Positions 3,910 through 52,621 of a DNA stretch of 52,621 nucleotides are shown in pieces. Source of the DNA: Candidatus Omnitrophota bacterium (GTDB lineage Bacteria; Omnitrophota; Omnitrophia; Omnitrophales; Aquincolibacteriaceae). The stretch spans positions 1 to 52,621 of the forward strand of contig DAOPYQ010000012.1 of the NCBI GenBank assembly GCA_035352955.1. Reading direction: 5' to 3'. Made by a program: the position numbers and the translations under genes. Numbering within the stretch: the stretch's first letter is position 1; every line of letters starts with the position of its first letter. The notes under the pieces are model-generated. The model worked only from the letters and a program-made list of their open reading frames with translations. It was not told the origin of the DNA and ran no database searches.

Positions 3910-3945
3910 AATTTCCGTACCAAAAACTTCCCGAAGCGCCCTTTT

Positions 3946-3983: not shown

Positions 3984-4075
3984 GCTCATGCCTTGATCGT
4001 TTTCATTTATAGAGTTACCTGGTACAAAAAAAATTTAAAAAGTTACTTCACCCATTAAAGAAAGGTTAAAGAAAG

Positions 4076-7000: not shown

Positions 7001-10000
7001 TGGGGTCAGATGGACCTCGGCTTTTGCCCGGGCGGCGTAAAGCTGCTGTTCACCGAATCTCTCGACGGCGTCATCAAGTGGTCGGTTGCGACGTGGCTTT
7101 TCGCGATCAATAAGGTGTTCATGCAGGCGTTCTTTGACAAGGACAAGACGCCGATCAAGTTTTTCTTCTCCAAGGCGGGTCTCGCGCAGCTGACCGAGCT
7201 GATGATCTATGTGCTTCGGTGGGGTCTTTGGATGTCGCCGATCATTTTCACGTTCCTCCGCATGATGCCGACCCCGACCTGGTACAACCAGGACGGCGCG
7301 ATCCGCACGATCATCGCGACCTGGAACAATATTACGATGTCCGCGCCGGCGTTCCAGGCGTGGAGCCTCAAGATCTTTGTCTGGATCCTCGCGTTCGATT
7401 TCTTCCGCGTCCTTATCTGGATGGACCACATGGGGCTTCGCGTGGCGACGCTTGTGAACCTGAGCTTCCTCGGGATGGACAAGCTTGACGAGAAGGTCGC
7501 CAAGTTCATCGGGCCGGCCGTTGCGCAGCGCTACATCCCCGAAGGGGTGAAGCGCTTCACGACATGGGCGCCGCTTTTGATTCCGTTCTACTTGCCCCGC
7601 GGCGAACAGTGGGATTATGTCTGGAATACGGCGGAAGGCATTCAGAATGCGAACCGTGGGAAAGGGTTGATCCCGGCGTTGCAATCTTTGTCCTTGTGGC
7701 AGATGACGCTTTTAGCGGTCGCGGCGGTCGTGCTTTGTACGGCGTTTTCGGCCGTGATCCGCGCGCTGCACCGTCGTGCGGAGCAGAAGCGTGTCAAAAA
7801 TTACGAGCTTGGGAACCGCGAATACAAGGTCACCCTCAAGGAAAATGGTGAAGTCTACAGCGAAGTGATCGCCAAGGAATCCGACGTGAGCCGCCGCTCG
7901 TACGATCTCATCGATCCCTGCGGCCGTATCCTTTATCTCGTAGACACCGCGGAAAAGCCCGGCAGCGCCGTGCGCACCTGGCCGGTGGCCGGGAATTTCC
8001 CGCAGGAATATTTCGAGCTTTCCCGCGCCGAACGCGGGGAGGATTCGCTGAAGCTTTTCAATACCTCGAACGGTGTGAGGACCACGATCGATATCACGCT
8101 GCCGGACCAGGACAGTACGGCCGAGATCTGGAACGTGACGATTGAGAACCTGACGGATAAGACCCGCCAGCTCAAGGTCGTTCCTTATTTGGAGTGGGTC
8201 CTGAACGGCTGGATGCACGACCGGTTCCACACGCAGTACCAGCGTCTCTATCCCGAAATGGAATACGTGAGTGCTGCGAATACGATCCTTGCCGCGAACA
8301 AGAGCACGAAGTCTATGGGATTTCTTGCCTGCGACGTTGCTCCGGAAGGTTTTCTGACCGGCCGCGTGGATTTCATCGGCCGCGCGCGCAGCATCTGGAC
8401 GCCCCGGGCCCTCGAGACGATGGACTTTCTCGAAGCCAAAGATACGCCGGGCTGTCCGACATTCGATCCTATCGGAAGCATGCTCGTTGGGATGACGGTG
8501 AATCCGCGCGAAGCCAAAACGATGCGCTTCATGATCGGCTTTGCGAAGAAAAAAGACCAGGCGCTGGGCCTTGTGAAAAAATATCTGAACCCGCAGCCGG
8601 CGAAATCCGCCGCTCCGGCGCCGGCTAAAAAGCGGTCGCTTTTGATCGGCCACGGGGAGATCCCTCCGGGAACCCCGCAGCCTTACTATGAATACAAGGA
8701 CAACGGGAACAAACTTCTGGTGCGCACGCCGTATACGCCGCGGCCTTTTGACCACGGCATGGCGAACCCGGTTCATTCGGTGATGGTTACGAACCGCGGG
8801 CTGCACACGTCCTGCAACGGAAATTCCCAGCAGAACCGCGTGACGCCGGATTGGCCGGACACGGTCACCCGGGAAGTACCCTCGGAAGCGATCTATCTTT
8901 ATGATCCGGATCGCGACCAATGGTTTTCTCCGACGCATCATCCGATTAATGATCCGAACGCCCACAACGAGGCGGAGTTCGGGGTCGACGGGACCGCGGT
9001 CTTTCGTATGTCGAACGGAACTCTTTCGACCGAGATGACGGTGTTTGTGCCGACCGAAGACCCGATGGGGGTTTATCTCCTGACCGTCCGCAACCATGAC
9101 GATCAACCGCGCCGGATCCGTGTCGCGCCGTATTTCCAGATGGCGCTCGCGTTCCAGCCGGAACGTTCGGGACCGCTCGGGACGAAGTACGACAAAGCCC
9201 TGGACGCGCTTTTCTTCGAGAATCCGCGCAATATTTTCCGTAACGGCCCGGCGTTCGCGTCGATGTCGATCCCGGCGGATTGCTATGAGACCAAGCGCGG
9301 CAGGTTTTTTGGAAGCGGCCGCGGGCCGGCCCATCCGTTCTTCGTGGAGCGGGGACAGTCGGACGCAACGCAACTGACCGATAGCGCGCAGGTCGCGGCG
9401 TTTCTCGGCGTGCTGGAACTTCCGGCGGGCGGGGAGAAGACTGTCGCGATCATTCTGGGACAGACTGACAGCCGCAAGAATGCGATCGAGCTTGTTCAGA
9501 AGTATAAAAATCTCGAGACCGTTCGCAAGACGCTCGATGAGACCCGGAAATGGTGGCTCGGGCTTATGGGTACCGCCCAGATCAAGACCAACGATCCCGA
9601 CTTCAACCGGTATCAAAACTGGCTCAAGTATCAGGCGCTGGCCGAGCGGATCTGGGCACGCCGCGGTTTCTATCAGACGAGCGGCGCGTTCGGTTTTCGC
9701 GATCAGCTGCAGGATACCGTGAACTTGACCTGGGTGGATCCGGCGCTTGCGCGTAAGCAGATTCTGTTGCACGCCTCGCAGCAGTTCATCGAGGGGGACG
9801 TGTTCCACTGGTTCTTCACGCTGACCGACGGCCGGAGCGCGTTCTCCTGCCGGTCGCACGCTTCCGACAATCTTCTTTGGATCGCGTGGGGCGTGGGCGA
9901 GTATGTCCGGATCACGGGCGATGAAACGATCCTGGATGAGATGACTTCGTATGTGGCGTCGGAGTTTCCGTTTGCGCCGCTTCCGAAGAACAAGCACGGG

Positions 10001-10999
10001 TGGGGTTCGCTTTACCAGCGCTCGACCCGCGCGGATTCCGTTTATCGCCACTGCATGCGATCGATCGACACCGTGCTCAACCATCGCATGGGCCGGAACG
10101 GTCTTCCGCTCATGGGCGTGGGGGACTGGAACGACGGTCTCGACGAGATCGGGAGCGCCGGGAAGGGCGAGAGCGTGTGGCTCGGGTTCTTCCTTTATTA
10201 CATCTTGAAAGAAATGCTCGGTGTGATCGAAAAGAAGGACGGTGTTAAGCGCCGGGATCATTACCGGAACAAGATGCAGGCCCTGGAGGCCGCACTTGAA
10301 AAGACCTGGCGCGAGGACCGCTATTTGCGCGCGATCCACGATGACGGGACCGAGATCGGCGTCAAGGGCAGCGGCGTTTGGGAGATTGATGCCTTGACCG
10401 CGGCCTGGTCGGTGTACACCGGTATCAATTTTGACCGGTCGGTCACGATCTTCAATACGGCTTTGAGCGTCCTTGAAAGGGGTAGTGTTATCCTTCTCGG
10501 ATGGCCAGCTCTACGCGAAGACACTAAGCCGTATCTCGGAAGAAGTAGCAAATATCCCGAGGGTGTTCGCGAGAACGGGATGTATTGTCACGGCGTTCAA
10601 TGGCTAGTTCGCGCCGCGCGTCTTCTGGCCGAAGAGTTCGAGAAGCGAGGCGATCGCGCAAAGGCGGATGAATATCGCGCGACCGCGTACCGCTTGTGGC
10701 GCAAGATTTCGCCGCTGGCGCATTTGACGCCGCAGGAGATCGAGATCTACGGCGGGCAACCTAACAAGCAACCAGCGGACTTTTTGACCACGTTCGAATC
10801 CGGGCGCATGATCTGGAACGGCTATACCGGAGCCGCCGGGTGGATGCTCCGTCAGGCGTTCGAAGGGGTTGCCGGCGCTTTGGTGGTGAAGAACCAGCTC
10901 GTTCTTCCGAAGGATCTCGACAAATCCCGGGGCAATCTCAAGATCGAAGGGATTTTCCGCGACATTAGTAAGAGTCCGTTCGCGGGGTCTTCGCGCTGA
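4076..10999 (+). CDS. Giant (2307 aa) envelope protein: N-terminal signal/anchor, two tandem CBM-like beta-sandwich repeats, large polytopic membrane block, C-terminal GH94-type glycoside phosphorylase module (NdvB/Cgs C-terminal-like)
   Basis: Single uninterrupted ORF with an ATG start. The internal duplication is FNVLDARERGVTVSGSAKGKLTATYDEAAKKDILELDY... against FGLLDAGEKGVSPAGTAKGTVTFSFDEEAKKDVYDLGY.... There are roughly 15-20 hydrophobic segments by eye between aa ~430 and ~1275. GH94-like motifs are GFRDQLQD, GDWNDGLDE and RENGMYCHGVQW. A strong intrinsic terminator follows. Confidence 0.85.
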   Translation: MPFSPMSVHPFSSTLSKFFRTERHKAVLAVLGMFLISAATAFAAASSFNVLDARERGVTVSGSAKGKLTATYDEAAKKDILELDYAVAQGETVSVWAKNFPAEFATAGMNSSKVSLRGTAEKAAQITVRMDLKGATGVQNIPLKVKGGWISTQEAIDLTKTGAVSEVVFVVSPVAGVASVKDTLGFALEFVKQVPAQKSVVVAPSAVAAKVKTVAAPVAKTVQSAVAPVQKKALSGMDALSAEDALEPSAKNLKTKVVAAAAVVSKPTVAVSPVKVPAAPARSSFGLLDAGEKGVSPAGTAKGTVTFSFDEEAKKDVYDLGYTLPAGSSLTVWTKKFPADLVATQVNTIAFGLRALDPAQLNQISLKAEIKGTGATQVMPLSLKPGWNAVEKTIPWAKIGQLTEVDLVITPKGNAGSVNGTLYLGFDFCNTSFLKKYLFLMKFGAVVLFSFLLAFLAGLLWKMSGSNKGASPESRVGKTLSILSPEKVSVMARLRQDFFYGIVTVLIAGLTLWIYASGMSLVGALVAALLGVVIAEMLKLRFAGKHLDAGEVFQNALLTGLLAAASTKMELLQAPVAWANLLMISGVTAAVTFVIYQLFNASSLGASGKHLKMSTGALIVATPFLFGWLLLLENVTLLQTLVFCLTGGILAAWPAILEFFGRLLVVFAFNEILINALGFAMKGKLLKTLKAHAYLLLVSLCVVVAPSIANLGSAAVVVSWHPVIRAVISILLTMFSFAGLWGEIYLLTGILLDSGKRIAPSEESLWKHTVGGMRKGFAFSGILMAILYLINLIFNTSVAQRVMGSFPIPTGLLLGALVFPFVKTIIETFDGSLPFFERMRYSYRHWTLYLRGALVGYGMAVMITQGFFQKTISERVVFGLIIGLLASGGVSLIRDIVYAMKGQGKVQSWRMYLIDSCLGVFLGSAIAFYLDTPQVSTIVYKFKLYMMSRFTGAEYSTHPYFNNLGHYVQPVLLSKWGQMDLGFCPGGVKLLFTESLDGVIKWSVATWLFAINKVFMQAFFDKDKTPIKFFFSKAGLAQLTELMIYVLRWGLWMSPIIFTFLRMMPTPTWYNQDGAIRTIIATWNNITMSAPAFQAWSLKIFVWILAFDFFRVLIWMDHMGLRVATLVNLSFLGMDKLDEKVAKFIGPAVAQRYIPEGVKRFTTWAPLLIPFYLPRGEQWDYVWNTAEGIQNANRGKGLIPALQSLSLWQMTLLAVAAVVLCTAFSAVIRALHRRAEQKRVKNYELGNREYKVTLKENGEVYSEVIAKESDVSRRSYDLIDPCGRILYLVDTAEKPGSAVRTWPVAGNFPQEYFELSRAERGEDSLKLFNTSNGVRTTIDITLPDQDSTAEIWNVTIENLTDKTRQLKVVPYLEWVLNGWMHDRFHTQYQRLYPEMEYVSAANTILAANKSTKSMGFLACDVAPEGFLTGRVDFIGRARSIWTPRALETMDFLEAKDTPGCPTFDPIGSMLVGMTVNPREAKTMRFMIGFAKKKDQALGLVKKYLNPQPAKSAAPAPAKKRSLLIGHGEIPPGTPQPYYEYKDNGNKLLVRTPYTPRPFDHGMANPVHSVMVTNRGLHTSCNGNSQQNRVTPDWPDTVTREVPSEAIYLYDPDRDQWFSPTHHPINDPNAHNEAEFGVDGTAVFRMSNGTLSTEMTVFVPTEDPMGVYLLTVRNHDDQPRRIRVAPYFQMALAFQPERSGPLGTKYDKALDALFFENPRNIFRNGPAFASMSIPADCYETKRGRFFGSGRGPAHPFFVERGQSDATQLTDSAQVAAFLGVLELPAGGEKTVAIILGQTDSRKNAIELVQKYKNLETVRKTLDETRKWWLGLMGTAQIKTNDPDFNRYQNWLKYQALAERIWARRGFYQTSGAFGFRDQLQDTVNLTWVDPALARKQILLHASQQFIEGDVFHWFFTLTDGRSAFSCRSHASDNLLWIAWGVGEYVRITGDETILDEMTSYVASEFPFAPLPKNKHGWGSLYQRSTRADSVYRHCMRSIDTVLNHRMGRNGLPLMGVGDWNDGLDEIGSAGKGESVWLGFFLYYILKEMLGVIEKKDGVKRRDHYRNKMQALEAALEKTWREDRYLRAIHDDGTEIGVKGSGVWEIDALTAAWSVYTGINFDRSVTIFNTALSVLERGSVILLGWPALREDTKPYLGRSSKYPEGVRENGMYCHGVQWLVRAARLLAEEFEKRGDRAKADEYRATAYRLWRKISPLAHLTPQEIEIYGGQPNKQPADFLTTFESGRMIWNGYTGAAGWMLRQAFEGVAGALVVKNQLVLPKDLDKSRGNLKIEGIFRDISKSPFAGSSR
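4214..5366 (+). other. Two tandem CBM-like repeats (approx 4214-4661 and 4928-5366) separated by an Ala/Val/Lys/Pro-rich linker, within the giant protein
   Basis: Protein-level self-similarity read directly from the translation. There is no DNA-level identity between the two. Confidence 0.7.
7799..10996 (+). other. GH94-like phosphorylase module of the giant protein (N-terminal beta-sandwich region plus (alpha/alpha)6-type catalytic region)
   Basis: Motifs GFRDQLQD (about 9690-9715), GDWND (about 10122-10136) and ENG.Y.H (about 10570-10595) match my recollection of conserved GH94 catalytic and phosphate-site motifs. Confidence 0.65.
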
Positions 11000-11054: not shown

Positions 11055-11313
11055 GAGGGCGAAGATCCATATCCGAAGGAGTTTCTTTTTTGAATTTTGG
11101 GATAGAATCTCCTATTCGGAACGGCATTCTTTTCCTATAATTGCCGATAATCCGGGTTGTGACGTTTCGGGAGGAATGCGTTGTCTGAGGCTGTGACTGG
11201 GAATGCATGCCCAATGTTCTTAGGATCCCGTTCCCAAGGATTGCTCGCGGTGGGGAGAGGTTGTTGACGCGTTCGTGTCAGGCTTGGTTCTTTTCTCGTG
11301 GTTAATGAGAGTT

Positions 11314-11387
<74 letters not shown>

Positions 11388-11466
11388 TGTTTTTATAAGT
11401 TGTTCTTTATGGAACGGGAAATTTTTTCCGGGGTTCCGGTCAAAGTCCGTTCCGGACAAATCAATT

Positions 11467-16100: not shown

Positions 16101-16127
16101 AAATGCTTCAATAGGAATTCCGTCGCT

Positions 16128-16201
16128 GGGCAATTAGCTCAGTTGGTTAGAGCACTTCCTTCACACGGAAGGGGTCAGAGGTTCGAATCCTCTATTGCCC
16201 A
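16128..16201 (+). tRNA. tRNA-Val (anticodon CAC)
   Basis: 74-nt cloverleaf: acceptor GGGCAAT/ATTGCCC, D arm GCTC-AGTTGGTTA-GAGC, anticodon arm CTTCC-TTCACAC-GGAAG, T arm AGAGG-TTCGAAT-CCTCT, discriminator A. Confidence 0.92.
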
Positions 16202-16284
16202 GCGGCGGTTTTTTTTGTTCGTTAAGCGAGAGGCAGATCCATCAGAAAGTGGACAGCATCGCTCAAGGGGAGTAATATACCCGC

Positions 16285-17745: not shown

Positions 17746-17829
17746 GCTGGGATGGCGAAACTGGCAGACGCGCTAGCTTCAGGAGCTAGTGGCCGCAAGG
17801 CCTTGGGGGTTCAAGTCCCCCTCTCAGCA
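17746..17829 (+). tRNA. tRNA-Leu (anticodon CAG), class II with long variable arm
   Basis: 84 nt: acceptor GCTGGGA/TCTCAGC (one G-U pair), anticodon arm CTAGC-TTCAGGA-GCTAG, variable arm GGCC-GCAA-GGCC, T arm GGGGG-TTCAAGT-CCCCC, discriminator A. Confidence 0.9.
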
Positions 17830-17934
17830 CTTTTTCTCAATGAAAAAGTACGATGCCGTGAGGGGCTAACGAAAACCCTCTCCACACCGTACTTTTGTAC
17901 TGCAGTGAATGTTTTTTATGACCCACCGGCGGCT

Positions 17935-42184: not shown

Positions 42185-44314
42185 ATGACTTCCGAATTAT
42201 CCCTCACCGCCGGATTGAATCCCACGCAGAAAGAGGCCGTCACCTGGCCTCCGCAACGGCCGCTTTTGATCCTGGCCGGAGCGGGGAGCGGGAAGACGCG
42301 CATCCTCACGCACCGCATCGCCTACCTGATCTCGTGCGGCGTGCCGGCGTTCCATATCCTCGGCGTGACATTTACCAATAAGGCTGCCGCGGAAATGCGC
42401 CTCCGTATCGAGAAGCTCGTTTCCCAGCAGGTCTGGATCAGTACGTTCCACTCGACCTGCCTGCGCATTCTCCGGATGGACGGGGCGGCGATCGAGATCG
42501 ACCGCAGTTTTATCATCTACGACGAATACGACCAGCTGGTGATCATCAAGGAATGTATCGCGGAGCTCGGGCTGAACGAAAAACAGGTCCATCCGAAAGG
42601 CGTGCGCGAAGAGATCTCCCGCGCGAAGGATTATCTCGTGACGGCGTTCCAGTATGCGGGGAAGGCGACGGATCTTTATGCGCAGCAGGTGGCGCGCGTT
42701 TATCAGCTTTATGAGCAGAAAATGAAAAAGCTCAAGGCCTGTGATTTTGGCGACCTGATCATGAAGACGGTCATTCTTTTCGATCTCTGCCCCGAAGTGC
42801 TCAAGACCTGGCAGGACCGGTTCCAGCATATCCTGATCGACGAATACCAGGACACGAATCACGCGCAGTACCGGCTTGTGAAACTCCTGGCATCGGCGCG
42901 GCGTCAGATCACCGTTGTGGGCGATCCGGACCAGTCCATTTATGGCTGGCGCGGGGCGGACATCAAGAACATCCTGAACTTCGAGACCGATTATCCCGAT
43001 TCCGGCAGTATCCGGATGGAGCAGAATTACCGTTCCACGTCCGTGATCCTTGACGCGGCGAACCATTTGATCAAGAACAACGCGATGCGCAAACCCAAGG
43101 CGCTTTGGACCGAGAAGAAGGGCGGTGAGAAGATCGAGCTTTTCAACGCCTCCGATGAGATCGAAGAAGCCCGGTATGCGGTGCGGAACGTCCTGAAATA
43201 TAAAATGCAGGGCCGGACGTTTGCCGAGCAGGTCATTTTTTACCGTGTGCATGCGCAGTCGCGCGTCCTTGAAGATGAGCTGATGCGGGCGAACATTCCC
43301 TACAAGATCGTCGGCGGCACGCGCTTCTACGACCGCCGGGAGATCAAGGACGTGATCGCGTACTTGCGCCTTGTGGCATACCCGCACGATGAGATCAGTC
43401 TGAAGCGCATCATCAATGTCCCGCCGCGCGGGATCGGGAAAAAGGCGATGGAAGCGCTTGAGAGCGCAACGCACACCCCACGGGGGCTGGGTACAAATCG
43501 CCCTGACACTCAACGCACAACGGAAAAGCAAGATTCGTTGCCCGTTGAGCGTAGTACGTTGAGCGCCCCGGAGGCGACATGGGATTCCGTTCTGGCCAAT
43601 GTTCAGTCCGTTGACGGTCTGACGCCCAAAGTCAAAAAAACGCTCGCGGATTTTCACGCTTGGCTGACGAAGCTTCGGAAATCCCAGCGCGGGATGAAAA
43701 TCCGGGACATTCTCGAGAAGATCCTCGAAGATACCGGTTATGTGGCGGCGCTTGAAGCCGAGCGGACGACGGAGGCGCAGGCGAGGCTCGAGAATATCGA
43801 GGAATTTTTCAGCGTGATCGAAGATCATGAGGAGCGGTTCGTAGAAGTGCCGGACGGCAAAGAGACCGGCCAGTCCCGGCTCGAGCATTTTCTCGAATCA
43901 ATCGAACTTGTGACCGACCTTGACGCGTGGGACCAGGGCACGAACGTTCTCACACTTATGACGCTTCATACCGCAAAGGGCCTGGAATTCCCGATCGTGT
44001 TTATGGTCGGGTTGGAGGAGGGGATCTTTCCTCACGTGAATTCCTACGCCGGATCTTCCGAAGAGATCGAAGAGGAACGGCGGCTTTGCTACGTCGGTGT
44101 CACGCGCGCCCGCGAAAAACTGCACCTGTCTTACACCATCCAGCGCCGGCTTTACGGTGCGGTCCATCACAACCTGCCGTCCCGGTTCCTCAACGAAGTC
44201 CCATCCCATTTGTACGACGCCCGGACCCTTTCCGGGTACGGCGGCGGGAGTGATGACGATTTCCCCGACGACGATCCTTCCTCCATCCACGACCCCGCCA
44301 TCGAGTTCGATTAG
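42185..44314 (+). CDS. uvrD: ATP-dependent DNA helicase UvrD/PcrA (SF1)
   Basis: Motif I AGAGSGKT, motif II ILIDEYQDTN, VGDPDQSIYGWRGA, QNYRS, TLHTAKGLEF and YVGVTRAR. Acidic C-terminal tail. Confidence 0.95.
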   Translation: MTSELSLTAGLNPTQKEAVTWPPQRPLLILAGAGSGKTRILTHRIAYLISCGVPAFHILGVTFTNKAAAEMRLRIEKLVSQQVWISTFHSTCLRILRMDGAAIEIDRSFIIYDEYDQLVIIKECIAELGLNEKQVHPKGVREEISRAKDYLVTAFQYAGKATDLYAQQVARVYQLYEQKMKKLKACDFGDLIMKTVILFDLCPEVLKTWQDRFQHILIDEYQDTNHAQYRLVKLLASARRQITVVGDPDQSIYGWRGADIKNILNFETDYPDSGSIRMEQNYRSTSVILDAANHLIKNNAMRKPKALWTEKKGGEKIELFNASDEIEEARYAVRNVLKYKMQGRTFAEQVIFYRVHAQSRVLEDELMRANIPYKIVGGTRFYDRREIKDVIAYLRLVAYPHDEISLKRIINVPPRGIGKKAMEALESATHTPRGLGTNRPDTQRTTEKQDSLPVERSTLSAPEATWDSVLANVQSVDGLTPKVKKTLADFHAWLTKLRKSQRGMKIRDILEKILEDTGYVAALEAERTTEAQARLENIEEFFSVIEDHEERFVEVPDGKETGQSRLEHFLESIELVTDLDAWDQGTNVLTLMTLHTAKGLEFPIVFMVGLEEGIFPHVNSYAGSSEEIEEERRLCYVGVTRAREKLHLSYTIQRRLYGAVHHNLPSRFLNEVPSHLYDARTLSGYGGGSDDDFPDDDPSSIHDPAIEFD

Positions 44315-44410
44315 GCTCGCCTGGTCTTTTTGCTCTCCTTCTTCTTCGTTTGAGGTGCCCAAGATGCGCATCTCATCTCCGGGGTTGCTCGGCGCTATTT
44401 TCGGATACCT

Positions 44411-44589
44411 CCATTTGAACATCTGAAAATAGTTTAAAATCCATCTAGATTAATCCTATCTTGTTTGATATCAACAGGTTAAGATTGCTATATATTGCTA
44501 TAAATATTTGATATTCTATAGAGTATGAGCTATCTTTATTAGTGGATAGATAAAATAAACATACTAAAGATGTTAAACAATATCAAATT
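44411..44589 (+). promoter_or_regulatory. AT-rich leader/promoter region of the second giant gene, with three copies of a TTGATAT/ATATCAA motif and a candidate promoter TTGCTA-N16-TATAGA (44495-44522)
   Basis: There is a sharp drop in GC relative to the flanks. A 10-bp palindrome TTGATATCAA sits at 44465-44474. TTTGATATT (44507-44515) and its exact reverse complement AATATCAAA (44579-44587) are also present, the latter abutting the ATG. TTGCTATA occurs as a direct repeat. Confidence 0.4.
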
Positions 44590-47500
44590 ATGACAAACTC
44601 TGCTAAAAAAATCATAAGTCTAGTCACGATTTTTTGCTTTGCGATGACGCAAAGCGTGACAGCTTATCCCGGTGCCGGAATTGATATTGTCCGCCCCGCG
44701 GAAGTTCCGTCATTTCTTCAGATCGATATCCCGTCCGAACTTGCGACACTCGACGGACTTTTCGAAGCGCCGGTGAGCCCGGACCCGCGGTTGATCCTTC
44801 ACATCCAGAATGCGCACGCGAATTACGGGGCCCAGGAAAAGATCAAACAGCTCTTGCAGTACCTTGAACGGACTTATGCCATCAGGACCATTTTTGTCGA
44901 AGGCGCGTCCGAAGACCTCAATCCCGACTACTTGAAAATGTTCCCGGACCGCGAACGCAATCTCAAGCTTGCGGATTTCCTCGCCAAACAGGGGGAGCTG
45001 ACGGGAGCGGAACTTTTCATTCTCGAGGAGAATGAAAAGCGGGATGGAGGAGGGAGGATGGAGGAGGGAGTAAAAACAGGTTCGTCGCCATCCGCCATCC
45101 GCCATCCGATATCCAGAGTTACGCCGAAGGCGCACGGTATCGAGAACGCCGCGCTGTACCGCCAGAATTACGAAGCGCTCAAAAAAGTTTTCGGCAATGA
45201 AGCCACGGTGAACCGTTATCTCCTAGGCTTCGAGGCGCGGCTTGACGGTTTGGCGTCCAAGGTCTTTGGTGCGGATCTTCGCAAACTTCTCGGGGAGTGG
45301 AAAAAATTCGAAAAAGGGAACCGCGAGTTTATGCCGTACATCCGCGCCCTTGCCACGGAGGCGAAGCGTATCCTCGGGTCGGACTTGGAGAGCCTGCTTT
45401 CGCAGATCGAATGGCCGCAGATCACGCGGATCCTCGTGCTTCAGACCATGGAAAAAGACCTGAACGTCGAAAAGGGACTTGCCGAGAAAGGCGAGCTCAT
45501 CCGATTCCTCAAGGAGAAGAAGGCCTCCCCCCGGCTTATTGCCGCGATCGAGAACTTTCAGGACCAGCGCATGAATGTCCCGCGTGGGGAAACGGGACAG
45601 AACGCCGGCCCTATTCAACCGCGCGACCTCATGGAACAGCTCGTGAACGAAGCCGGCCCCAAGGGGTTCTATTTTTACAATTATCCGAACTTCAGCCTCT
45701 ATGCCGGGTACATCATCCTGAAAAGCGAACTCGATCCCAAAGGCCTTTTCGACGAGATCCGGCTCCTGTTCACGCGGATCATGGACAAACTGGCGGTGAG
45801 CGAGCGGCAGAAGACCCTGCTCGGGCTTTACCGCGATGAGGAACTTGTCCGCAAGCTCCTCAACCTCGAGTTGACCCGTAAGAACTGGCAGGACGTCCTC
45901 AGCAGGGGGACGCTCCTGTCGATGGATTCCCTGGTGACGCGTCTCAAGGACATTGGGACTGCCGTCGCCACGGAATCCAATCTTCCGCTTACGAATTTCG
46001 AGACGAAGAAGGTGAACCCCAAGTTCCGCAGTGAGGTGATGGACGTTCAGGCCGCCGCGTACGATTTTTACGAGGCCGCGCGCAAACGCGAAGAGGTCTT
46101 TTACGAAAAGATCGATTCCGTGATGCGGGGCGGCGCGCTCACGAAAGCGGTCCTGATCACCGGCGGTTTTCACACCGACGGCATCACCGAGCTTCTCCGC
46201 GAGCACGAGATCAGTTACGGCATCCTTACTCCGCGACTTTCCGAAAAGGGTGATGAACATCTTTACCGCGCGGTCATGTTGCAGAACACCGACCGTCCTT
46301 TCAGCATTTCATATCTCGAACAATCGGTAAAAGAAGGTCCGGTGGTGAACCAGCCCAATCCTGCCGGAGCGCTTGGGACTTTGGTTAATGCCATCGCGGC
46401 GACCGACCGCAAAGAGATCCGCCAGGCGGTGGAGATTTTTAATGCTTCGACCTCGGCCCAATTGAACAATCTCCGCCTTGAACGCCGGTCCGAGGATTCC
46501 CGTGGCCGTCCGACTTACCAAGTGGTATCTCGCACTGGAGAGCGCATGACCTCTGACAGACCGGGGGGAGGGATAGATCAGCCCTCGAATGTTTTGATCT
46601 CTCAGGATGTATTGACCGATGTGCTTGCCGATGCGGCTCGCGGTGCGACGCCGGTAATAGCCACTCCGGCGGTGACAACCGCCGTTGGTCGCATAGAACG
46701 ATTGGTAACGCCGGCCAGTCCTGAAGCTGTATCTCCCAGTGCCGCCAGCGACGTGGTTCGACAAGCGCTTATTAACGAAGCTCAAACGGCAGGTGTCACG
46801 CCGGCACAGCTTGCTGCTGCGGTTGTATCCGTCATGCCCGCTGTGTCTACCTCTGGGACCGATTTGGGTCCTGTGGATGTTTCACCCCAGGCCACTTCAA
46901 CCTCCGGTGTTTCGGCAGAACCGGCCTTTTTAAGGGAGGAAAACGGATTGCCGGAGGGTATCGAAGTCCCGATCGTCATGATTCCGCTTAAACGTTTTGT
47001 GGTGACGCTGGACGGACCGCCCGCGGCTGGGAAGACCACGACAAGCCGCATGGTTGTCAGGCGGTTGCATGAACAGGGGATCCCGATGGCGTATGTGGAC
47101 AGCGGGTTCGTGTACCGCGCCATGGCGGCGAGTTTGATGAAGACCTTCGGCGATGTTTCAACGATCTCTGCGGTTCTTAATGATTCCGGGCGTCTGACCG
47201 CATTTCTCAAAGAAGCGAATATCCGGCTGCAGCTCGATGAGTGGGCGGATCCGGATGAATCGATGCGCGTCTTTATGGGGGACAGCCAGGCACCGGTTCC
47301 TTTGGAAGCTTTGAGAAACGAAGGCCTCAATCCGGTCCTCAAACTATTACGCCGCCGGGAGGTCCATCAATATGTCTTTCAAAGAATCCGCAACGCGGGA
47401 GAGGACAAAAACCTGATGGCGGTCGGACGAAACATGGGGACGCTTGTTTTTCCGGATGCTACAGGGCCCAAGATCTATCTGACCGTGTCGCAAGAGGAAC

Positions 47501-50500
47501 GGGCGAAGCGGCGGAAAGTCGGTCTTGAGGCTATCCAGCGCCGCGATGCCTCCAATCTGGAAGACCCGGTGGCGCCGTTGATCATTCCCCGTGGCGCTGT
47601 GGAGATCGATACGACGGGCGGGTATGACGGCGTATTGGAAAAATCACGGGACGCGACCGTCGAGAAGATATTCGGACTCATGAGTTCCGCCGCCAGCGCG
47701 GCTGCTACGGAAACGGCCGGGTCGTCCCGCCAGGAAGCCCGCGCCGAGAATCGTGCAACTCCCGCCCGCTCTGAAAACCACGAAACTCCTCCGGCCGCGT
47801 CGCCGGTATCTGGACGCGCGCCCGCCGCAGACGAAGCCGGCCGCACGGAAGCGCGACAAAATGACGACGGACAAGCCCGGGCGAAGGACGGAGATGATTT
47901 AGAAAGACGTGTTGCGGCAATGACCGATATGCGGGGTAAATTAGAGCTTCTCATTCGGCATTTGTTCATTGGTGATAAATATTTCCGAGACTTTTTGCCC
48001 GGTGAGATTGCATTTTTGAAAGAGGCTAAAAAATTTTACAAAGTTGATCCCGGGCAACTTAACGCGGCATATCGGGCCGCGGATATTCTGTTCGATCTAA
48101 TACAAAATCATCCCGACGAAGCAGAATCAGCAAAATCGCTGATGTTACAAATCGCAGCCCACATGGGGGGGGGACAGGAGGGTAATGTCAAACAGCTTTT
48201 GGAAGAGTTTGTTTTTAATGAAGGCCGTCGATTCATGTCCGTGGATGAGTTGGAGAATATAGCCCGCTACCACGCTATGTATAACGTACCGAATTATTCG
48301 ATGTTTATTCTCGTCGGGGATCCCGGCGAAATTACGGATGAAATTCGCATCAGCCAAATTCTTGCGGGAATACCGCAATACGGCGCAGAGGTCCTGCTTA
48401 TTTTTCGGTATCCGCAATATCGAACAGGACTGGGGGGCGGTGGCGGCGCCGCTTTGCCTGATGAAGGATTGGTGCTGTTGCCCGAGGGGTATCCTTCGGA
48501 AAAGACTGTCTATAAAACCAGGATACAAGGAGTGGGGCGGATGGGTGCGGAATTTATTGACGTTCCGGCAACGCGCGCCGTTGTCCGTGCGCGTCTTGCA
48601 GCCGGAAAAATCAGTATGAGGTTCGATCTTGCGCATCAGAAAGCGATTGCGGACCGGACGGAAAAAGCTTTGGACGCGATCGAGGCATGGCAGAATGAAT
48701 CGAAGCCGAAAGACGCTCCTGCTGCCGCCATGGCGCCGGCTCAAGACCGCGCGGAACGCCGCACGGCTGGGGAGGAGGAAACGGTTGGGCCGGATTTTGA
48801 TCCGGTCGTTCAGAACTATTGGCTGGAGAACAATCTTGGGGATGATGCCGCGCGCCGCGCTGCCGCGAAATTCTATTATGAGGACGGCAGAGACAAAGTG
48901 ATGCAAAAAAACGGCGTTACGGCCGCGATGTTCTCCGTGTTCATGAAGGTCATGAATTTCCGGGGACCGGATGCTGCGGTCAAAACTTTTACGGCCATAG
49001 ACGTGCTCCGGTCGTTTCGGATCTCTTATCCGGGGATGAGAGTATCGGTCATGATCGAAATTCTTTCCCGGAATCATTTTGTTTTTGAAAAGCTCGGGAA
49101 TATCCCGGGGGCTATGCCGGAAAGTGTGTGGCAGGAGATCCAGGGTATTTTTGCGCGCGAAGGGTTTAAGGCCGGGGTTTTGCCGTCGGTCCGTCCGGAG
49201 GCTGCGGCTTCTGCGGAAAAATGGGATGGGAGTTCGGTCGAGGTTCATGGCCTGATCCCAGAGCCTGCGGCTCCTGCCGACGCGACACTGACGCAGGCAT
49301 CCCCCTCGGAAAATTGGGATAATAGTTCGGTCGAGGAAATATTGCAGCAGATCCTGCGTTCTCCGGATCCAGCGACGGTCATCAACGCCGGAGAATCTTT
49401 TTATCAGAGACTGGATCGCGGAGGCGTGGCGGTCAAAAGCGGTCCTCATACTTTCCTGATCTGGCGGCAGCCGCGTTCCGCCTTCGTGGATGGTTCCGGG
49501 GAGCTTGAAGCCGGTAAGGTCTATATGACACGCATGCGAAGCAACGGTCAGCACTCGAAAATCCGTAAGATCGAGCCGGACGTAAAAATGAAGGTCGGGA
49601 TTAACGGTCAGGAGATTGGATACGGTGACCTCAAGGGGTTCTACCCGACCGGTGGCTTTTCGTTCACGGTCCAGTCGCGGGAGCGGGAAAACCGTCCTCC
49701 CCGGATCGAAGTGGACGGTGTGTTCGGGGATCAGCGGGTCGAGTTTAATGGCCTGATCCTAGAGCCTGCGGCTTCTGCCGCCGCGACACCGATGCAGGAA
49801 TCCACCCCGGAAAATCGGGATGGGAGTCCGGTCGAGGTTAATGGCCTGATCTCAGAGCCTGCGGCTCCTGCCGACGCGACACTGACGCAGGCATCCCCCT
49901 CGGAAAATTGGGATAATAGTTCGGTCGAGGAAATATTGCAGCAGATCCTGCGTTCTCCGGATCCAGCGACGGTCATCAACGCCGGAGAATCTTTTTATCA
50001 GAGACTGGATCGCGGAGGCGTGGCGGTCAAAAGCGGTCCTCATACTTTCCTGATCTGGCGGCAGCCGCGCGTGGATAGTTTTCGGAAGCTTGAAGCCGGT
50101 AAGGTCTATATGGCACGCATGAAAAGCGACGGTCAGCCCTCGAGAATCCGTGAGATCAAGCCGGACGTGGAAATGAAGGTCGGGATTAACGGTGCGGAGG
50201 TTGTATACGGAGACCACGACGATACGTTCAACCCGACCAGTGGCTTTTCGTTCACGGTCCAGTCGCCGCCGCGGCAAGGCCGTCCTTCCCGGATCGTAGT
50301 GGGCGGTGTGGTCGAGGGTCAGCCGGTCAAGGTTCAAGGTCTGATCCCGGCGGCTCAAGACCGTGCTGAAAGACGTTCCGCAATTCCGGCATCACCCACT
50401 TCGGACACCGGGTCTCCGAAGTTGGTTGGAGCGAGTGCGGCCAAGCCGCGGTCGAAACTTGACCAGGCGTTCGATACTTTTTTTGCCGCTGCCGGAGCGT

Positions 50501-52620
50501 TTGACCCGATCCTGAGCCAGACGGTCGCCGCGGGAGATCCTAGGACCCTCGGAAAAACGGTGCGTATCTATCCTAATACGTTGGAAATGTCCGGAAACGA
50601 ATTGCAAGGGGTGACGGTGAAATCGGGCTCAACCCTTTTCCGCATTTTGTACACGGGGGGAATTTACGGAACGGTTTATTACCGTATGTCGACATTAGAT
50701 GTGGCCGGTAACGAAGTCATCGATCCGAAGATCCACTCGGCGGAAAGACAGGAGGGCAGCGACGCCTTGATCGTGAGGGATCTTTCCCAGGCCGTTGGCC
50801 TGCCGGACCCCAGGATGGCTCCGACCGTTGTTTCCGTAAAAACAGGAGGAGATCAGGAAGGCAGAACTTATTTTGAGATCAAAGACCGGAGCCCGAAGGG
50901 CGTCGAACTCCAGTGGTCGCGACGGCTAGGGACCGACCTCGAAGAAGTTAAAGAAAAGGTCAAGGTTCAGGCGGAAGCTTTGACGGGAAAACATGATCAA
51001 CTGCAAGCTGGGTTTCACTATTTTGGCGGTCCGGCTGCTGAGAATCCCGGGGCGGAAGCGGAAACAGTCACGGAATCTCCCGCAGCCCCTCCTGCCGTGT
51101 CGGCTATTAACCTTGAAGGCATTAACCCATTTCTTCTTGGGAGAAAGTCGTTGAAGGATGAAGGATCGGCCGAGGAAAACCTGCCGAATAATGGCTGGGA
51201 CGACCAAGAGGTGATAGGTTCTCAGACAGCTCAGACGGCTCCGACCGCTGTCACTGCCGGCCGGATGGAAAAACGCGCGGATGCGTACAGCGGGATGAGG
51301 GGGAAAGAAATTGCCGGCTATGCTGTGGTTTTATCGTTTTTCAATCCGGTCCTGTTCGTCGTGTTTTACTGGAATCTTCTGATGGCCGTCGGCGATAGAG
51401 TATCGCCCGCGACGGGGATTACCTTGTTGCTTGCGCCGCTTGCTGTTGTTGCCGTGGGCGCTTTGGTGGCTGGAGTGGCATTCCTGCCGATTCTTTTCAA
51501 GGAATCTCTTGCTGCGTTTTCCGGGGAGAAGACGAGTCTTGCCGGGTATCAGCAGATGGCGGAGAAGAAATTCTCAAATCTCCAAAGCGATGTGAAGGGC
51601 GATGCTCTCCTAGCCGGTGAATGGGCGACAGGGCGCTACCGGGTCCAGGTGGAGGATGATTCCGGGGCGGCCTACTATGATGTTAAACAGCGCAAGGTGG
51701 ATCTGGCGGGGCGAGAGATCCGGCCGCTTAAGATCTCTTCTTTCTACATGCAGATGACCTCGGTTTTTCGGTATACACTGATCCGGCGCACGCTCGGCTA
51801 TCATTACCAGGACCTCGCGGATCGCATGGAAACTGCTATAGGTCCTTCGCCTCTTCTCACGAGCCTGTTCTATCCGGTGTGGCTGATCTATAGCACATTT
51901 GAGACCCTGAGGTGCATGCGTTTCTATCTGCATCCTGTCACGCTCGGGTATGTCGGTATCGTGGGTGTTCTTTCTGTTTTTATCGGTCTCTTCGTGATCC
52001 CTGCGACTGTCGTTTATGAAATGGCAACCCGGGGTATCGGAAAAACGTCCCGGGACCTCAGCCATATCGTCCAATATGTTTTGAAAGGCCGGACGGTGCC
52101 GGAGGGAGAGCGGACGAGGCATGCAGGAGCTCTGTTGCCACGGAACCCGGTTCTTTACAATCTCGTGATGGCGACCCTGTGGAGCGTGGTCGGTATTCTG
52201 ACCGTCAATTTCATTTATGCAGCGCTCGGTGTCGGGAGCGCGGTCCTCTTTCCCGTGGCAGGGCGGGCGGTGGTTGCGGGGATGGCCTGGTTGTTCGGGT
52301 ACGTAATGAGCAAAGGCCGGCTGATGGAACAGATGAAAGATCACGAGTTTCGGAAAGGCCGTTTAGAAAGCCCCTCCTATGCAGCACCGGACACTAAGTC
52401 CGCCCGTCAGTCGGCACCTGCTAGGGGCGAGCGCGCGGAAAAGCGGGGAGGGGAGCGGTTGCTTGGCCGGGCGATGCTTCCTGCGATGGTCGCGTCTCTC
52501 TCTCTCTTCGCCATGGTGGCCAATGCCGCGGAGGAAAGTTTTTTTGGAAAGATCTTTTCGGTGGGTAAAGACGTTTCTGTGGGGGTGGTGGGCAGGCAGG
52601 GTGAAGATCGCGGTGACATG
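44590..52620 (+). CDS. Second giant protein, 3'-truncated by the window edge (at least 2677 aa): signal peptide, ChaN/Tiki-like N-terminal domain, low-complexity linkers, embedded cytidylate kinase-like domain, unknown helical region, tandem ~198-aa modules, C-terminal polytopic membrane region
   Basis: It is absent from the ORF track, which lists only start-to-stop ORFs. Hand translation of the frame with codon starts equal to 1 mod 3 found no stop from ATG 44590 to nt 52620. In-frame TAA at 44551 lies upstream, and 44590 is the first start after it. No track ORF in this interval is in this frame. The N-terminus MTNSAKKIISLVTIFCFAMTQSVTA is signal-like, and recognisable Cmk motifs lie in frame. 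The large antisense ORFs here are Arg/Pro-rich shadows. Confidence 0.85.
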   Translation, partial: MTNSAKKIISLVTIFCFAMTQSVTAYPGAGIDIVRPAEVPSFLQIDIPSELATLDGLFEAPVSPDPRLILHIQNAHANYGAQEKIKQLLQYLERTYAIRTIFVEGASEDLNPDYLKMFPDRERNLKLADFLAKQGELTGAELFILEENEKRDGGGRMEEGVKTGSSPSAIRHPISRVTPKAHGIENAALYRQNYEALKKVFGNEATVNRYLLGFEARLDGLASKVFGADLRKLLGEWKKFEKGNREFMPYIRALATEAKRILGSDLESLLSQIEWPQITRILVLQTMEKDLNVEKGLAEKGELIRFLKEKKASPRLIAAIENFQDQRMNVPRGETGQNAGPIQPRDLMEQLVNEAGPKGFYFYNYPNFSLYAGYIILKSELDPKGLFDEIRLLFTRIMDKLAVSERQKTLLGLYRDEELVRKLLNLELTRKNWQDVLSRGTLLSMDSLVTRLKDIGTAVATESNLPLTNFETKKVNPKFRSEVMDVQAAAYDFYEAARKREEVFYEKIDSVMRGGALTKAVLITGGFHTDGITELLREHEISYGILTPRLSEKGDEHLYRAVMLQNTDRPFSISYLEQSVKEGPVVNQPNPAGALGTLVNAIAATDRKEIRQAVEIFNASTSAQLNNLRLERRSEDSRGRPTYQVVSRTGERMTSDRPGGGIDQPSNVLISQDVLTDVLADAARGATPVIATPAVTTAVGRIERLVTPASPEAVSPSAASDVVRQALINEAQTAGVTPAQLAAAVVSVMPAVSTSGTDLGPVDVSPQATSTSGVSAEPAFLREENGLPEGIEVPIVMIPLKRFVVTLDGPPAAGKTTTSRMVVRRLHEQGIPMAYVDSGFVYRAMAASLMKTFGDVSTISAVLNDSGRLTAFLKEANIRLQLDEWADPDESMRVFMGDSQAPVPLEALRNEGLNPVLKLLRRREVHQYVFQRIRNAGEDKNLMAVGRNMGTLVFPDATGPKIYLTVSQEERAKRRKVGLEAIQRRDASNLEDPVAPLIIPRGAVEIDTTGGYDGVLEKSRDATVEKIFGLMSSAASAAATETAGSSRQEARAENRATPARSENHETPPAASPVSGRAPAADEAGRTEARQNDDGQARAKDGDDLERRVAAMTDMRGKLELLIRHLFIGDKYFRDFLPGEIAFLKEAKKFYKVDPGQLNAAYRAADILFDLIQNHPDEAESAKSLMLQIAAHMGGGQEGNVKQLLEEFVFNEGRRFMSVDELENIARYHAMYNVPNYSMFILVGDPGEITDEIRISQILAGIPQYGAEVLLIFRYPQYRTGLGGGGGAALPDEGLVLLPEGYPSEKTVYKTRIQGVGRMGAEFIDVPATRAVVRARLAAGKISMRFDLAHQKAIADRTEKALDAIEAWQNESKPKDAPAAAMAPAQDRAERRTAGEEETVGPDFDPVVQNYWLENNLGDDAARRAAAKFYYEDGRDKVMQKNGVTAAMFSVFMKVMNFRGPDAAVKTFTAIDVLRSFRISYPGMRVSVMIEILSRNHFVFEKLGNIPGAMPESVWQEIQGIFAREGFKAGVLPSVRPEAAASAEKWDGSSVEVHGLIPEPAAPADATLTQASPSENWDNSSVEEILQQILRSPDPATVINAGESFYQRLDRGGVAVKSGPHTFLIWRQPRSAFVDGSGELEAGKVYMTRMRSNGQHSKIRKIEPDVKMKVGINGQEIGYGDLKGFYPTGGFSFTVQSRERENRPPRIEVDGVFGDQRVEFNGLILEPAASAAATPMQESTPENRDGSPVEVNGLISEPAAPADATLTQASPSENWDNSSVEEILQQILRSPDPATVINAGESFYQRLDRGGVAVKSGPHTFLIWRQPRVDSFRKLEAGKVYMARMKSDGQPSRIREIKPDVEMKVGINGAEVVYGDHDDTFNPTSGFSFTVQSPPRQGRPSRIVVGGVVEGQPVKVQGLIPAAQDRAERRSAIPASPTSDTGSPKLVGASAAKPRSKLDQAFDTFFAAAGAFDPILSQTVAAGDPRTLGKTVRIYPNTLEMSGNELQGVTVKSGSTLFRILYTGGIYGTVYYRMSTLDVAGNEVIDPKIHSAERQEGSDALIVRDLSQAVGLPDPRMAPTVVSVKTGGDQEGRTYFEIKDRSPKGVELQWSRRLGTDLEEVKEKVKVQAEALTGKHDQLQAGFHYFGGPAAENPGAEAETVTESPAAPPAVSAINLEGINPFLLGRKSLKDEGSAEENLPNNGWDDQEVIGSQTAQTAPTAVTAGRMEKRADAYSGMRGKEIAGYAVVLSFFNPVLFVVFYWNLLMAVGDRVSPATGITLLLAPLAVVAVGALVAGVAFLPILFKESLAAFSGEKTSLAGYQQMAEKKFSNLQSDVKGDALLAGEWATGRYRVQVEDDSGAAYYDVKQRKVDLAGREIRPLKISSFYMQMTSVFRYTLIRRTLGYHYQDLADRMETAIGPSPLLTSLFYPVWLIYSTFETLRCMRFYLHPVTLGYVGIVGVLSVFIGLFVIPATVVYEMATRGIGKTSRDLSHIVQYVLKGRTVPEGERTRHAGALLPRNPVLYNLVMATLWSVVGILTVNFIYAALGVGSAVLFPVAGRAVVAGMAWLFGYVMSKGRLMEQMKDHEFRKGRLESPSYAAPDTKSARQSAPARGERAEKRGGERLLGRAMLPAMVASLSLFAMVANAAEESFFGKIFSVGKDVSVGVVGRQGEDRGDM
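45042..45107 (+). repeat. Short tandem repeats inside the giant ORF: GGATGGAGGAGGGA x2 (45042-45069), a 17-nt spacer, then GCCATCC x3 (45087-45107)
   Basis: Exact tandem copies read directly. The two arrays are partly complementary (GGATGG against CCATCC). The unit lengths, 14 and 7, are not multiples of 3. Confidence 0.85.
46987..47679 (+). other. Cytidylate kinase (Cmk)-like P-loop domain embedded in the giant ORF
   Basis: In-frame VVTLDGPPAAGKTTTSRMV, YVDSGFVYRAMA and AVGRNMGTLVFPDATGPKIYLTVSQEERAKRR match the Cmk signature pattern (DGPxGxGK[ST], DSGxxYR, GRDxGTVVFPDAxxKxxLxAxxExRAxRR). Confidence 0.75.
48165..48173 (+). repeat. Poly-G tract (G9) within the giant ORF
   Basis: catGGGGGGGGGac, read directly; it encodes M-G-G-G. 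Confidence 0.9.
49261..49475 (+). repeat. Copy A of a 215-bp perfectly identical intragenic direct repeat (part of a 594-bp tandem module)
   Basis: Identical base for base to 49855-50069. Near-identity (3-4 mismatches) extends upstream to about 49213. Flanking parts of the module are clearly diverged and include a 9-nt indel. Confidence 0.92.
49855..50069 (+). repeat. Copy B of the 215-bp perfectly identical intragenic direct repeat
   Basis: The offset of exactly 594 bp (198 codons) from copy A preserves the reading frame. The repeat is also visible in the track as the identical peptide string shared by antisense ORFs 48145..49554 and 49852..50358. Confidence 0.92.
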
Positions 52621-52621
52621 A

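Follow-up and report, generated by a model that had tools for sequence, protein, structure and literature searches.

A giant head-first gene of Candidatus Omnitrophota with a recurrent peptide at its module junctions and possibly polyprotein-like expression

The 52,621-nt stretch of Candidatus Omnitrophota DNA analysed here (contig DAOPYQ010000012.1; hereafter, the window) ends within a giant gene, which begins at position 44590 of the plus strand and is cut by the window end at 52621. We show that these 8 kb make up the 5′ half of a chromosomal gene that is intact and 5158 codons long. Its product starts with a signal peptide and a conserved domain, here termed the head, that stands at the N-terminus of a large family of proteins, while the remainder, termed the body, is a series of modules at whose boundaries the pentapeptide R-[SA]-E-x-R recurs. 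Conceivably, with a probability that we put at roughly 0.35, the giant open reading frames (ORFs) of this family encode bacterial polyproteins, i.e. autonomous pre-proteins that are joined by this motif, split by a protease or a ribosomal stop-go-like event, and routed by signals of their own. The wider account, in which an Omnitrophota modular giant gene is expressed in a polyprotein-like manner, carries an exported hydrolase as its head and serves in the cell envelope or in host or prey interaction, appears to us about evenly balanced.

Machine translation of 44590-52621 yielded 2677 codons with zero stops, a run for which the base composition gives a chance of ~10^-48, and no competing ORF was found on either strand, those listed in this region being short or antisense shadows. 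As the initial annotation of this DNA had recognised, the frame was absent from the ORF track because the ORF lister requires a stop codon. GC by codon position was 0.62/0.44/0.62, lowest at position 2, and coding-like in each 1-kb slice. GC3 descended to 0.52 in some of these slices and was 0.71-0.74 in uvrD, ftsA and the upstream gene for a GH94-type protein; the neighbouring housekeeping genes, at 0.66-0.74, all lay above the giant gene. This lower GC3 suggests a different codon usage or faster evolution. The start proposed earlier, ATG 44590, is the first start codon after the upstream in-frame TAA at 44551 and agrees with the homologs, which likewise open with M-x-x-x-K-K-hydrophobic. In the public call of the window's truncated copy (P0001, 2655 aa), a GTG start at 44656 was chosen, 22 codons downstream, but the full-length calls and the homologs favour ATG 44590, with which the signal peptide is included.

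The same locus was found, via the uvrD product, on JGI contig Ga0116247_10000007 (448 kb) and in NCBI assembly GCA_964411105.1 (129 kb), whereas peptide-pattern scans of genome and metagenome contigs for the rest of the gene gave no match. On both longer contigs the gene is called at 5158 aa (15.5 kb), so that the extension of the contig towards a stop, which the initial annotation had proposed, leads to a complete gene. Over the entire ORF the DNA of the longer contigs equals that of the window, except for an in-frame patch of ~35 nt at 49368-49398 and two single-nucleotide polymorphisms. The G9 tract at 48165-48173, which had been named together with short tandem repeats as a place where an in-frame stop might emerge, lies inside a stretch that exactly matches the DNA of both loci (L001 and L002). 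The patch, whose counterpart is L001 17184-17220, is the one difference of substance that separates the window from the other assemblies. Both versions are in frame: in the window the encoded sequence is ...SPDPATVINAGESFYQ..., the same as in tandem module 2, and in L001 and L002 it is ...SPDPPRDINDGGGGRFYQ..., longer by 6 nt. Since tandem copy 1 of the window reads like copy 2 at this patch, gene conversion or assembler cross-talk is indicated. The full-length protein (P0349), which comes from the 90% cluster of the window's protein, has residue numbers equal to the window numbers plus 2 beyond the patch; the same cluster contains two C-terminal fragments that carry the NCBI name 'SAM-dependent methyltransferase [Candidatus Omnitrophota bacterium]'.

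In a first search, 119 homologs aligned only to the first ~560-770 residues of the giant protein, and in each homolog the aligned part was N-terminal. Further downstream, the Pfam content of these proteins varied widely and included TPR, HD, NUDIX, PRTase, HATPase, receiver, HPr, PGI, TIM and aldolase domains, as well as glycogen synthase, SecA, adenylate kinase and methyltransferases. When a profile built from 24 heads was searched against 1.84 billion representatives (50% identity clusters), 10,268 clusters matched at E ≤ 1e-3 and 7,287 at E ≤ 1e-30, and the head was N-terminal in 150 of the 150 matches listed, in proteins of up to 7,498 aa. Furthermore, 521 head loci were confirmed with one strict pattern in GTDB species representatives; among the best 80 of them, every record that names a phylum named Omnitrophota, and several genomes had three copies. 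The source-named homologs of the first search were likewise nearly all from Candidatus Omnitrophota, the others being two from Elusimicrobia.

The initial annotation had described an N-terminal domain of ~530 aa without known function, and indeed aa 44-566 matched no Pfam (2025 copy) or NCBIfam model and no PDB sequence. Residues H76, R500, G525, G526, H528 and P548 are invariant in 198 of 198 sequences, and E104 is present in 197, which suggests that the head is an active enzyme. An AlphaFold2 (AF2) model of the head (pLDDT 82.8) predicted a six-strand α/β core that is split by a helical insertion of ~290 aa, and each candidate catalytic residue follows a core β-strand in this prediction. A second AF2 model reached pLDDT 87.0. 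Foldseek was run on the full head and on its compact N-half against the PDB; the best E was 0.49, and for neither was a TIKI entry among the top 50.

Many members of the TIKI superfamily, which we compared as TraB/PrgY/GumN (PF01963), ChaN (PF04187), erythromycin esterase (PF05139) and MARTX RRSP, are extracytoplasmic. The order and spacing of the 2His/2Glu-type TIKI signature are essentially invariant in the 198 head sequences. Specifically, the spacing of 28 from (D/N)74-x-H76 to E104 is that of H85/E113 in Bcr135 and of H3902/E3930 in RRSP (PMC6254334), while R500, ~28 residues before G-G-F-H528, resembles the R...GxxH of TraB and ChaN. The head differs from TIKI proteins by the insertion that splits its core and by the lack of a significant profile or fold match. 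PF04187 was matched by 3 of 24 full heads and 6 of 24 core-only sequences, at best with E = 0.004 (16 bits against a cut-off of 27.7), always at the C-terminal R...GxxH part of the profile, and in 5 of 10 remote members this part aligned to R500...H528, again below threshold. PF05139 matched the head once (E = 0.07) at the same motif, which hhalign also picked when the head was compared with E. coli YbaP (TraB family). Over YbaP and its family profile, hhalign gave E = 0.08-0.34, which is not significant; the family profile was low in diversity, as it was built from the best 120 close relatives. Because all TIKI matches remained below threshold, we do not call the head a TIKI member; judged from its sequence, it is probably an exported hydrolase with TIKI-like features. 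Short and weak matches to STALD, a SLOG-family model, were equally frequent. A SLOG/LOG-like head, to which these matches and the string 'GGFHT' could point, is less likely, as the matches extend over only ~40 positions of the profile, the head does not conserve the position of the catalytic Glu of LOG, and its His528 never varies.

An unbiased count of 5-mers in the bodies of 175 family proteins placed RSEVR, RSEAR, RSEMR, RSELR, RSETR and RAEVR at the top. The common pattern, R-[SA]-E-x-R, occurred at 1003 sites in 470,707 body residues, as compared with 24.9 ± 5.4 in shuffles, and variants with K for R, D for E, T or G for S or A, or a changed order reached 13-40 sites each, except for the overlapping R.E[SA]R. 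Its density was 2.13 sites per 1000 aa in bodies and 0.33 in heads, and its median spacing was 233 aa, or approximately one site per domain. In the giant protein we counted 11 sites against 0.37 expected; RAE[KR]R alone was found 7 times against 0.03, and all 10 of the 10 xE[KR]R sites lie at module boundaries. The motif was absent from the other 31 genes in the window (13,934 residues), the 2307-aa GH94-type protein included, and from the ordinary neighbour genes of two related loci, each giant ORF of which has 6-10 sites. Consistent with a position between domains, an HD domain at residues 3680-3817 of P0004 is bracketed by sites at 3660 and 3841, and a PGI domain at 3389-3896 of P0074 by sites at 3331 and 3946; in P0349, sites at 3244 and 3697 enclose the methyltransferase, and those at 3883 and 4031 enclose a module with a transmembrane (TM) segment and a peptidoglycan (PG)-binding domain. 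The first site after the head is found at a median of aa 668. Close to that position, at aa ~650 of the window's protein (~nt 46540) and soon after the head, there is a near-miss, 'RRSEDSRG', which is one residue longer than the motif.

At 179 motif sites from loci L008-L089, the last Arg is encoded by all six codons and the Glu by both, at approximately background ratios, which indicates that the motif is mainly under selection at the peptide level. The first Arg is CGC or CGT at 78% of the sites (background 36%) and the Ser is TCN at 94% (background 66%); this CGY-TCN bias could reflect an added RNA-level constraint. Two other origins were considered and rejected: a DNA repeat or recombination scar, because the codons vary between sites, those within the giant protein included, and an internal ribosome-binding site with start codon, as no purine-rich pattern was seen and the giant protein has K or R at position x. 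In a related locus (L008, 13380-13470), the head-family protein P0003 (1816 aa) and the next ORF (2201 aa, with an HD domain) overlap by 10 nt, and RSEVR is encoded in the downstream frame, upstream of the called start of the 2201-aa ORF; the two are probably one gene of ~4000 aa that a frameshift has divided, whether through a sequencing error or as a programmed shift. Literature searches with R[SA]ExR returned no relevant paper, and to our knowledge the motif fits no cleavage specificity.

Supporting the idea that modules start anew at the motif, Sec-like signal peptides followed 89 of 956 motif sites but only 359 of 10,500 random positions (p = 4e-15), and Tat-like signals followed 12 of 1023 sites against 23 of 17,500 (p = 2e-7). 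Examples of twin-arginine segments after the motif are SRRSFLKLLGAAAG and TRRGFLKVMGAAGL; the Pfam model TAT_signal matched 2 of 10 such modules at E ~ 1e-3, just below the cut-off, and one of the modules is a NAGPA-type glycosidase. A few lipobox-like signals were also seen after the motif, and TM-like segments were enriched after it and depleted before it. In P0349, beyond the window, RAEKR at aa 3883 is followed by a hydrophobic signal-like segment (aa 3902-3920) and then by PG_binding_1 (~aa 3948-4002), while the methyltransferase module has no signal. In the literature on Omnitrophota giant proteins, internal signal-peptide calls on later chunks were suppressed as artefacts (Nielsen & Lui 2026, 10.64898/2026.06.07.730766), and the cleavage points of these proteins were stated to be unknown (West-Roberts 2023, 10.1101/2023.11.21.568195).

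If the polyprotein reading is correct, the ORF would be a 'gene train' of autonomous modules, which proteolysis or some equivalent event would separate at the motif or close to it. Those modules that have a Sec, Tat or lipoprotein-type signal of their own would be exported, examples being the head, the PG-binding module and the segment that follows aa 2615, and signal-less enzyme modules, such as the methyltransferase and presumably the kinase, would remain in the cytoplasm. The head would then probably act as an exported hydrolase, and the role of the whole would probably lie in the cell envelope or in host or prey interaction, by analogy with proposals for the giants of this phylum. On this reading the topology paradox, i.e. 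cytoplasm-type enzymes behind signal peptides, would resolve. Viral polyproteins, eukaryotic pro-proteins and 2A 'stop-go' systems are alike in that one ORF holds several autonomous units with a short recurrent peptide at the domain boundaries, and flavivirus polyproteins also have internal signal sequences after some junctions; they differ in that the present case is a chromosomal bacterial gene family, for which separation is predicted from sequence.

Several observations weigh against this reading. No dedicated protease was identified, and a signal-like segment follows only ~9% of the motif sites. No strict motif site lies between the exported head and the kinase of the giant protein, and in P0074 two sites fall at the edge of a TIM-domain match. 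The CGY-TCN bias of the first two motif codons would also allow the motif to act at the nucleotide level. Moreover, 38 family members without a motif in the body still carry the head, mostly as remote heads, so that head and motif are not strictly coupled. Finally, the best Foldseek E of ~0.5 and the sub-threshold profile matches do not confirm the head as a TIKI-like hydrolase, and the envelope or host-interaction role is taken over from the literature.

Alternatively, as the literature assumes by default, the product could be one uncleaved chain that is threaded through the membrane, with the motif as a structural or interaction element at domain junctions (such as a charged cap between domains or a docking site) and the internal signals as ordinary signal-anchor or stop-transfer helices of co-translational insertion. 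We regard this as a tentative but genuine possibility. Published topology work treats the giants as single chains with signal peptide (SP) and TM helices (Nielsen & Lui 2026), the absence of a following signal at 91% of the motif sites and of a protease partner would both be expected, and a dip in the hydrophobic fraction is confined to the ~10 residues nearest the motif, which marks the motif as a short junction rather than a long exposed linker. However, a Tat signal is known to operate from the free N-terminus of its folded substrate, and canonical twin-arginine signals that lie thousands of residues inside an ORF fit poorly with function in an uncleaved chain. In addition, by simple topology rules applied to the hydrophobic segments, the SAM-dependent methyltransferase would be placed extracellularly and the PG-binding domain on the cytoplasmic side. 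Implausible localisations of this sort were also noted by West-Roberts 2023.

A further alternative is delivery of the kind known from polymorphic effectors and MARTX toxins, in which the head would serve for export or attachment, the bundle would enter the membrane of prey or host, and the enzymes would use the ATP and SAM of the target. The constant head, the hypervariable body and the several paralogs per genome are in line with this, as are the cytoplasm-type enzymes behind a signal peptide and the predatory or episymbiotic lifestyle proposed for the phylum; MARTX and polymorphic toxins, too, are secreted proteins of very large size that combine a constant part for delivery with variable enzyme modules. 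In MARTX the modules are released by autoprocessing; in the present protein, release of modules is a prediction. Nevertheless, neither RTX repeats nor a cysteine protease domain (CPD), toxin or immunity domains were detected with Pfam and NCBIfam, the constant part is a single N-terminal globular domain, and the genes upstream have housekeeping functions (dcw cluster, glycine cleavage, uvrD). We consider effector delivery possible but unlikely. An artefact, be it an assembly chimera, several genes joined through sequencing errors in the G9 tract or in the repeats, or a pseudogene in decay, could draw on the patch, where assembler cross-talk is possible, and on the low GC3, but is essentially excluded by the in-frame state of both patch versions, the match of the rest of the 8 kb including the G9 tract to two longer contigs bar two polymorphisms, the continuation of the frame to 5158 aa with recognisable domains in frame, the negligible chance of so long an open frame, and the thousands of homologs that share the head-first layout.

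The features of the gene and its upstream region are collected in Table 1. The signal peptide has a basic n-region, a hydrophobic core of ~15 aa and V-T-A ahead of the predicted cut, and the same layout was seen in nearly all Met-initiated homologs. The linker behind the head contains a weakly hydrophobic stretch at aa 734-752. The kinase domain scored E = 2.4e-22 (80.1 bits; cut-off 26) against PF02224 and E down to 7e-13 against PDB chains of Cmk, with E. coli-type and Staphylococcus-type structures among them, and its P-loop GPPAAGKT, DSGfvYR, GRnMGTlVFPDA and ERAkRR motifs align to Cmk structures. It fell below the TIGR00017 equivalog cut-off (69.8 against 135.55 bits). Stand-alone Cmk is a cytoplasmic enzyme of ~220 aa, whereas this domain is embedded in a 5158-aa protein behind a signal peptide; given this and the sub-equivalog score, a housekeeping Cmk function should not be assumed.

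Downstream of the kinase, a word-indexed search of 5.8 billion proteins, in which very remote relatives could be missed, found no homolog of body aa 1090-3241 but the protein itself; module B is the only body segment with a relative, residues 2110-2260 of P0002 (47% identity). The G9 tract lies in module A and encodes a Gly run. The tandem modules share 66-73% amino-acid identity, with a 262-nt stretch that is 98% identical at a spacing of 594 nt, and the start of the third module is weakly related to them (aa 1897-1987 against 1701-1795, 30% identity, E = 1.6e-4). Hydropathy placed helices of the membrane region at aa 2241-2259, 2284-2302, 2457-2475, 2521-2539 and ~2544-2569, and gave six or seven hydrophobic helices over aa 2241-2646. 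The order of parts given in the initial annotation was borne out: a signal-peptide-like N-terminus cut before YPG, a linker rich in Ala, Thr, Ser, Pro and Val followed by an in-frame cytidylate kinase, a charged linker and ~430 aa of helical sequence without known family (aa 1091-1515, the orphan modules), two tandem modules of ~198 aa with a related, weaker third copy, and at least 6 hydrophobic helices before the window end. Beyond the window, P0349 has coiled-coil-like and low-complexity stretches, as judged by eye, and a Methyltransf_28 domain of the NDUFAF7 type at ~aa 3311-3511 (E = 1e-29). Thus, apart from the head, the recognisable parts are the Cmk-like kinase within the window and the methyltransferase and PG-binding domain beyond it, and over the whole length all recognisable domains are in frame. 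At aa ~4370 of P0349, 'YWVHGDIKLSNLVY...IDYAG' resembles by eye a catalytic loop, as in protein kinases or aminoglycoside phosphotransferases, with a DFG-like motif behind it; Pfam gave no match in this part at E ≤ 0.1.

Table 1. Features of the giant gene and its upstream region (positions in the window; aa, residues of the window's protein)
Feature	Position	Strand	Basis or remark
Terminator-like hairpin	44309-44326		5′ edge of intergenic region; consensus match only
AT-rich intergenic region	44315..44589	.	275 bp, 34.5% GC, from uvrD to the giant gene
Promoter-like site	44508-44536		Upstream of the giant gene; consensus match only; 2 such sites against 1.0 expected
Probable cleavable Sec signal peptide (aa 1-25)	44590..44664	+	MTNSAKKIISLVTIFCFAMTQSVTA/YPG; heuristic call
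Conserved head domain (aa 44-566)	44719..46287	+	Sole region common to 119 homologs
Candidate catalytic residue H76	44815-44817	+	Conservation
Candidate catalytic residue E104	44899-44901	+	Conservation
Candidate catalytic residue R500	46087-46089	+	Conservation
Candidate catalytic residue H528	46171-46173	+	Conservation
Ala/Thr/Ser/Pro/Val-rich linker (aa 567-804)	46288..47001	+	Composition, hydropathy
Cytidylate-kinase-like P-loop NMP kinase domain (aa 805-1009)	47002..47616	+	Pfam PF02224
Junction motif RAENR (aa 1051)	47740..47754	+	In charged linker after kinase domain
Orphan, mostly helical module A (aa 1091-1386)	47860..48747	+	No Pfam match or homolog
Junction motif RAERR (aa 1387)	48748..48762	+	Motif scan
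Orphan module B (aa 1392-1515)	48763..49134	+	One relative
Two tandem ~198-aa beta-rich modules (aa 1516-1703, 1707-1899)	49135..50286	+	Self-comparison
Junction motif RAERR (aa 1925)	50362..50376	+	Motif scan
Third beta-rich orphan module (aa 1930-2224)	50377..51261	+	No Pfam match
Variant junction motif RMEKR (aa 2225)	51262..51276	+	11 residues ahead of first TM helix
Membrane region, five or six hydrophobic helices	51310..52296	+	Kyte-Doolittle 19-aa windows scoring 1.6-2.6
Junction motif RAEKR (aa 2615, nt 52432-52446) with internal signal-peptide-like segment	52432..52527	+	GGERLLGRAMLPAMVASLSLFAMVANA/AEE

No obvious Shine-Dalgarno sequence precedes ATG 44590. The 10 kb upstream hold murC, murB, ddl, ftsA, the gcvT/H/P glycine cleavage system, a lipoate ligase gene and uvrD, i.e. 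housekeeping genes including the dcw cluster, which places the giant gene in the core chromosome with no obvious mobile island. Three tRNA genes lie in the window (Arg-TCT 11313-11388, Val-CAC 16127-16203 and Leu-CAG 17746-17830). The other large gene, 4076-10999 on the plus strand, encodes 2307 aa, and the earlier statement that the two genes occupy ~28% of the window is arithmetically correct. Their pairing did not hold, since the 2307-aa protein is unrelated: its matches are GH94-type (supersandwich E = 2e-70, catalytic domain E = 7e-58), by which it is a cyclic β-1,2-glucan synthase- or phosphorylase-like protein, and a head shared between the two genes was accordingly rejected, neither head domain nor junction motif being found in it. 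A related metagenome-assembled genome (L008) likewise has a GH94 gene, of 2311 aa, at a distance of two genes upstream from a head-family gene, and the two may be loosely syntenic.

The initial annotation had regarded the gene as a candidate for an undescribed system. This is not upheld, as multi-enzyme giants with SP and TM helices have already been described for Omnitrophota. Seymour 2023 (PMC10066038) reported ORFs of >20 kb in most Omnitrophota classes, West-Roberts 2023 described 'Archaeovorins', membrane-associated giants rich in glycosyl- and methyltransferases, NUDIX and similar domains, and Nielsen & Lui 2026 listed 916 proteins of at least 10 kaa, 39% with SP and TM, and defined a 'multi-enzyme metabolic cluster' class. 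The present protein shares with them the phylum, the N-terminal signal peptide, TM helices at about one per several hundred residues, and a mixture of cytoplasm-type enzymes and envelope domains in a mostly unannotated and poorly conserved sequence. Hydropathy gave a signal-like N-terminus and seven or eight hydrophobic helices in its 5158 aa, and its enzyme and envelope Pfams (Cytidylate_kin, Methyltransf_28 and PG_binding_1, one copy each) are sparse compared with the largest examples. N-terminal regions of the published giants are generally without identifiable domains, and most giants have a SecA-DEAD-like domain (West-Roberts 2023); aa 1-2677 and 2711-5158 of our protein contain no SecA-DEAD domain (PF07517, PF01043), which some family members do have (P0094). 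Neither C39 nor S8 domains were detected in it, unlike in published Omnitrophota giants. At 5158 aa it lies below all published thresholds, namely >20 kb (Seymour), at least 10 kaa (Nielsen & Lui) and at least 30 kaa (West-Roberts). With the same architecture below these thresholds, it is a sub-threshold addition to a known kind. The earlier statement that no characterised protein has this architecture stands, in that none has been characterised experimentally. In term searches of West-Roberts 2023 and Nielsen & Lui 2026, neither the head domain nor R[SA]ExR was found. The kind of giant protein is therefore known for the phylum, while the head family and the junction motif were not found in the available literature.

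The gene itself is a mid-sized addition to a known class, and its existence is unsurprising. The head, present in more than 10,000 clusters, provides a handle for classifying giant proteins whose N-termini are described as domain-less in the literature. Together, the motif and the internal signals predict positions of neo-N-termini, cut points between modules for structure prediction, and the modules that are exported. If the polyprotein reading is true, this would be a rare case of chromosomally encoded polyprotein expression in bacteria, and the cleavage points still missing would become available for the entire class, the giants of >30,000 aa included if these share the motif.

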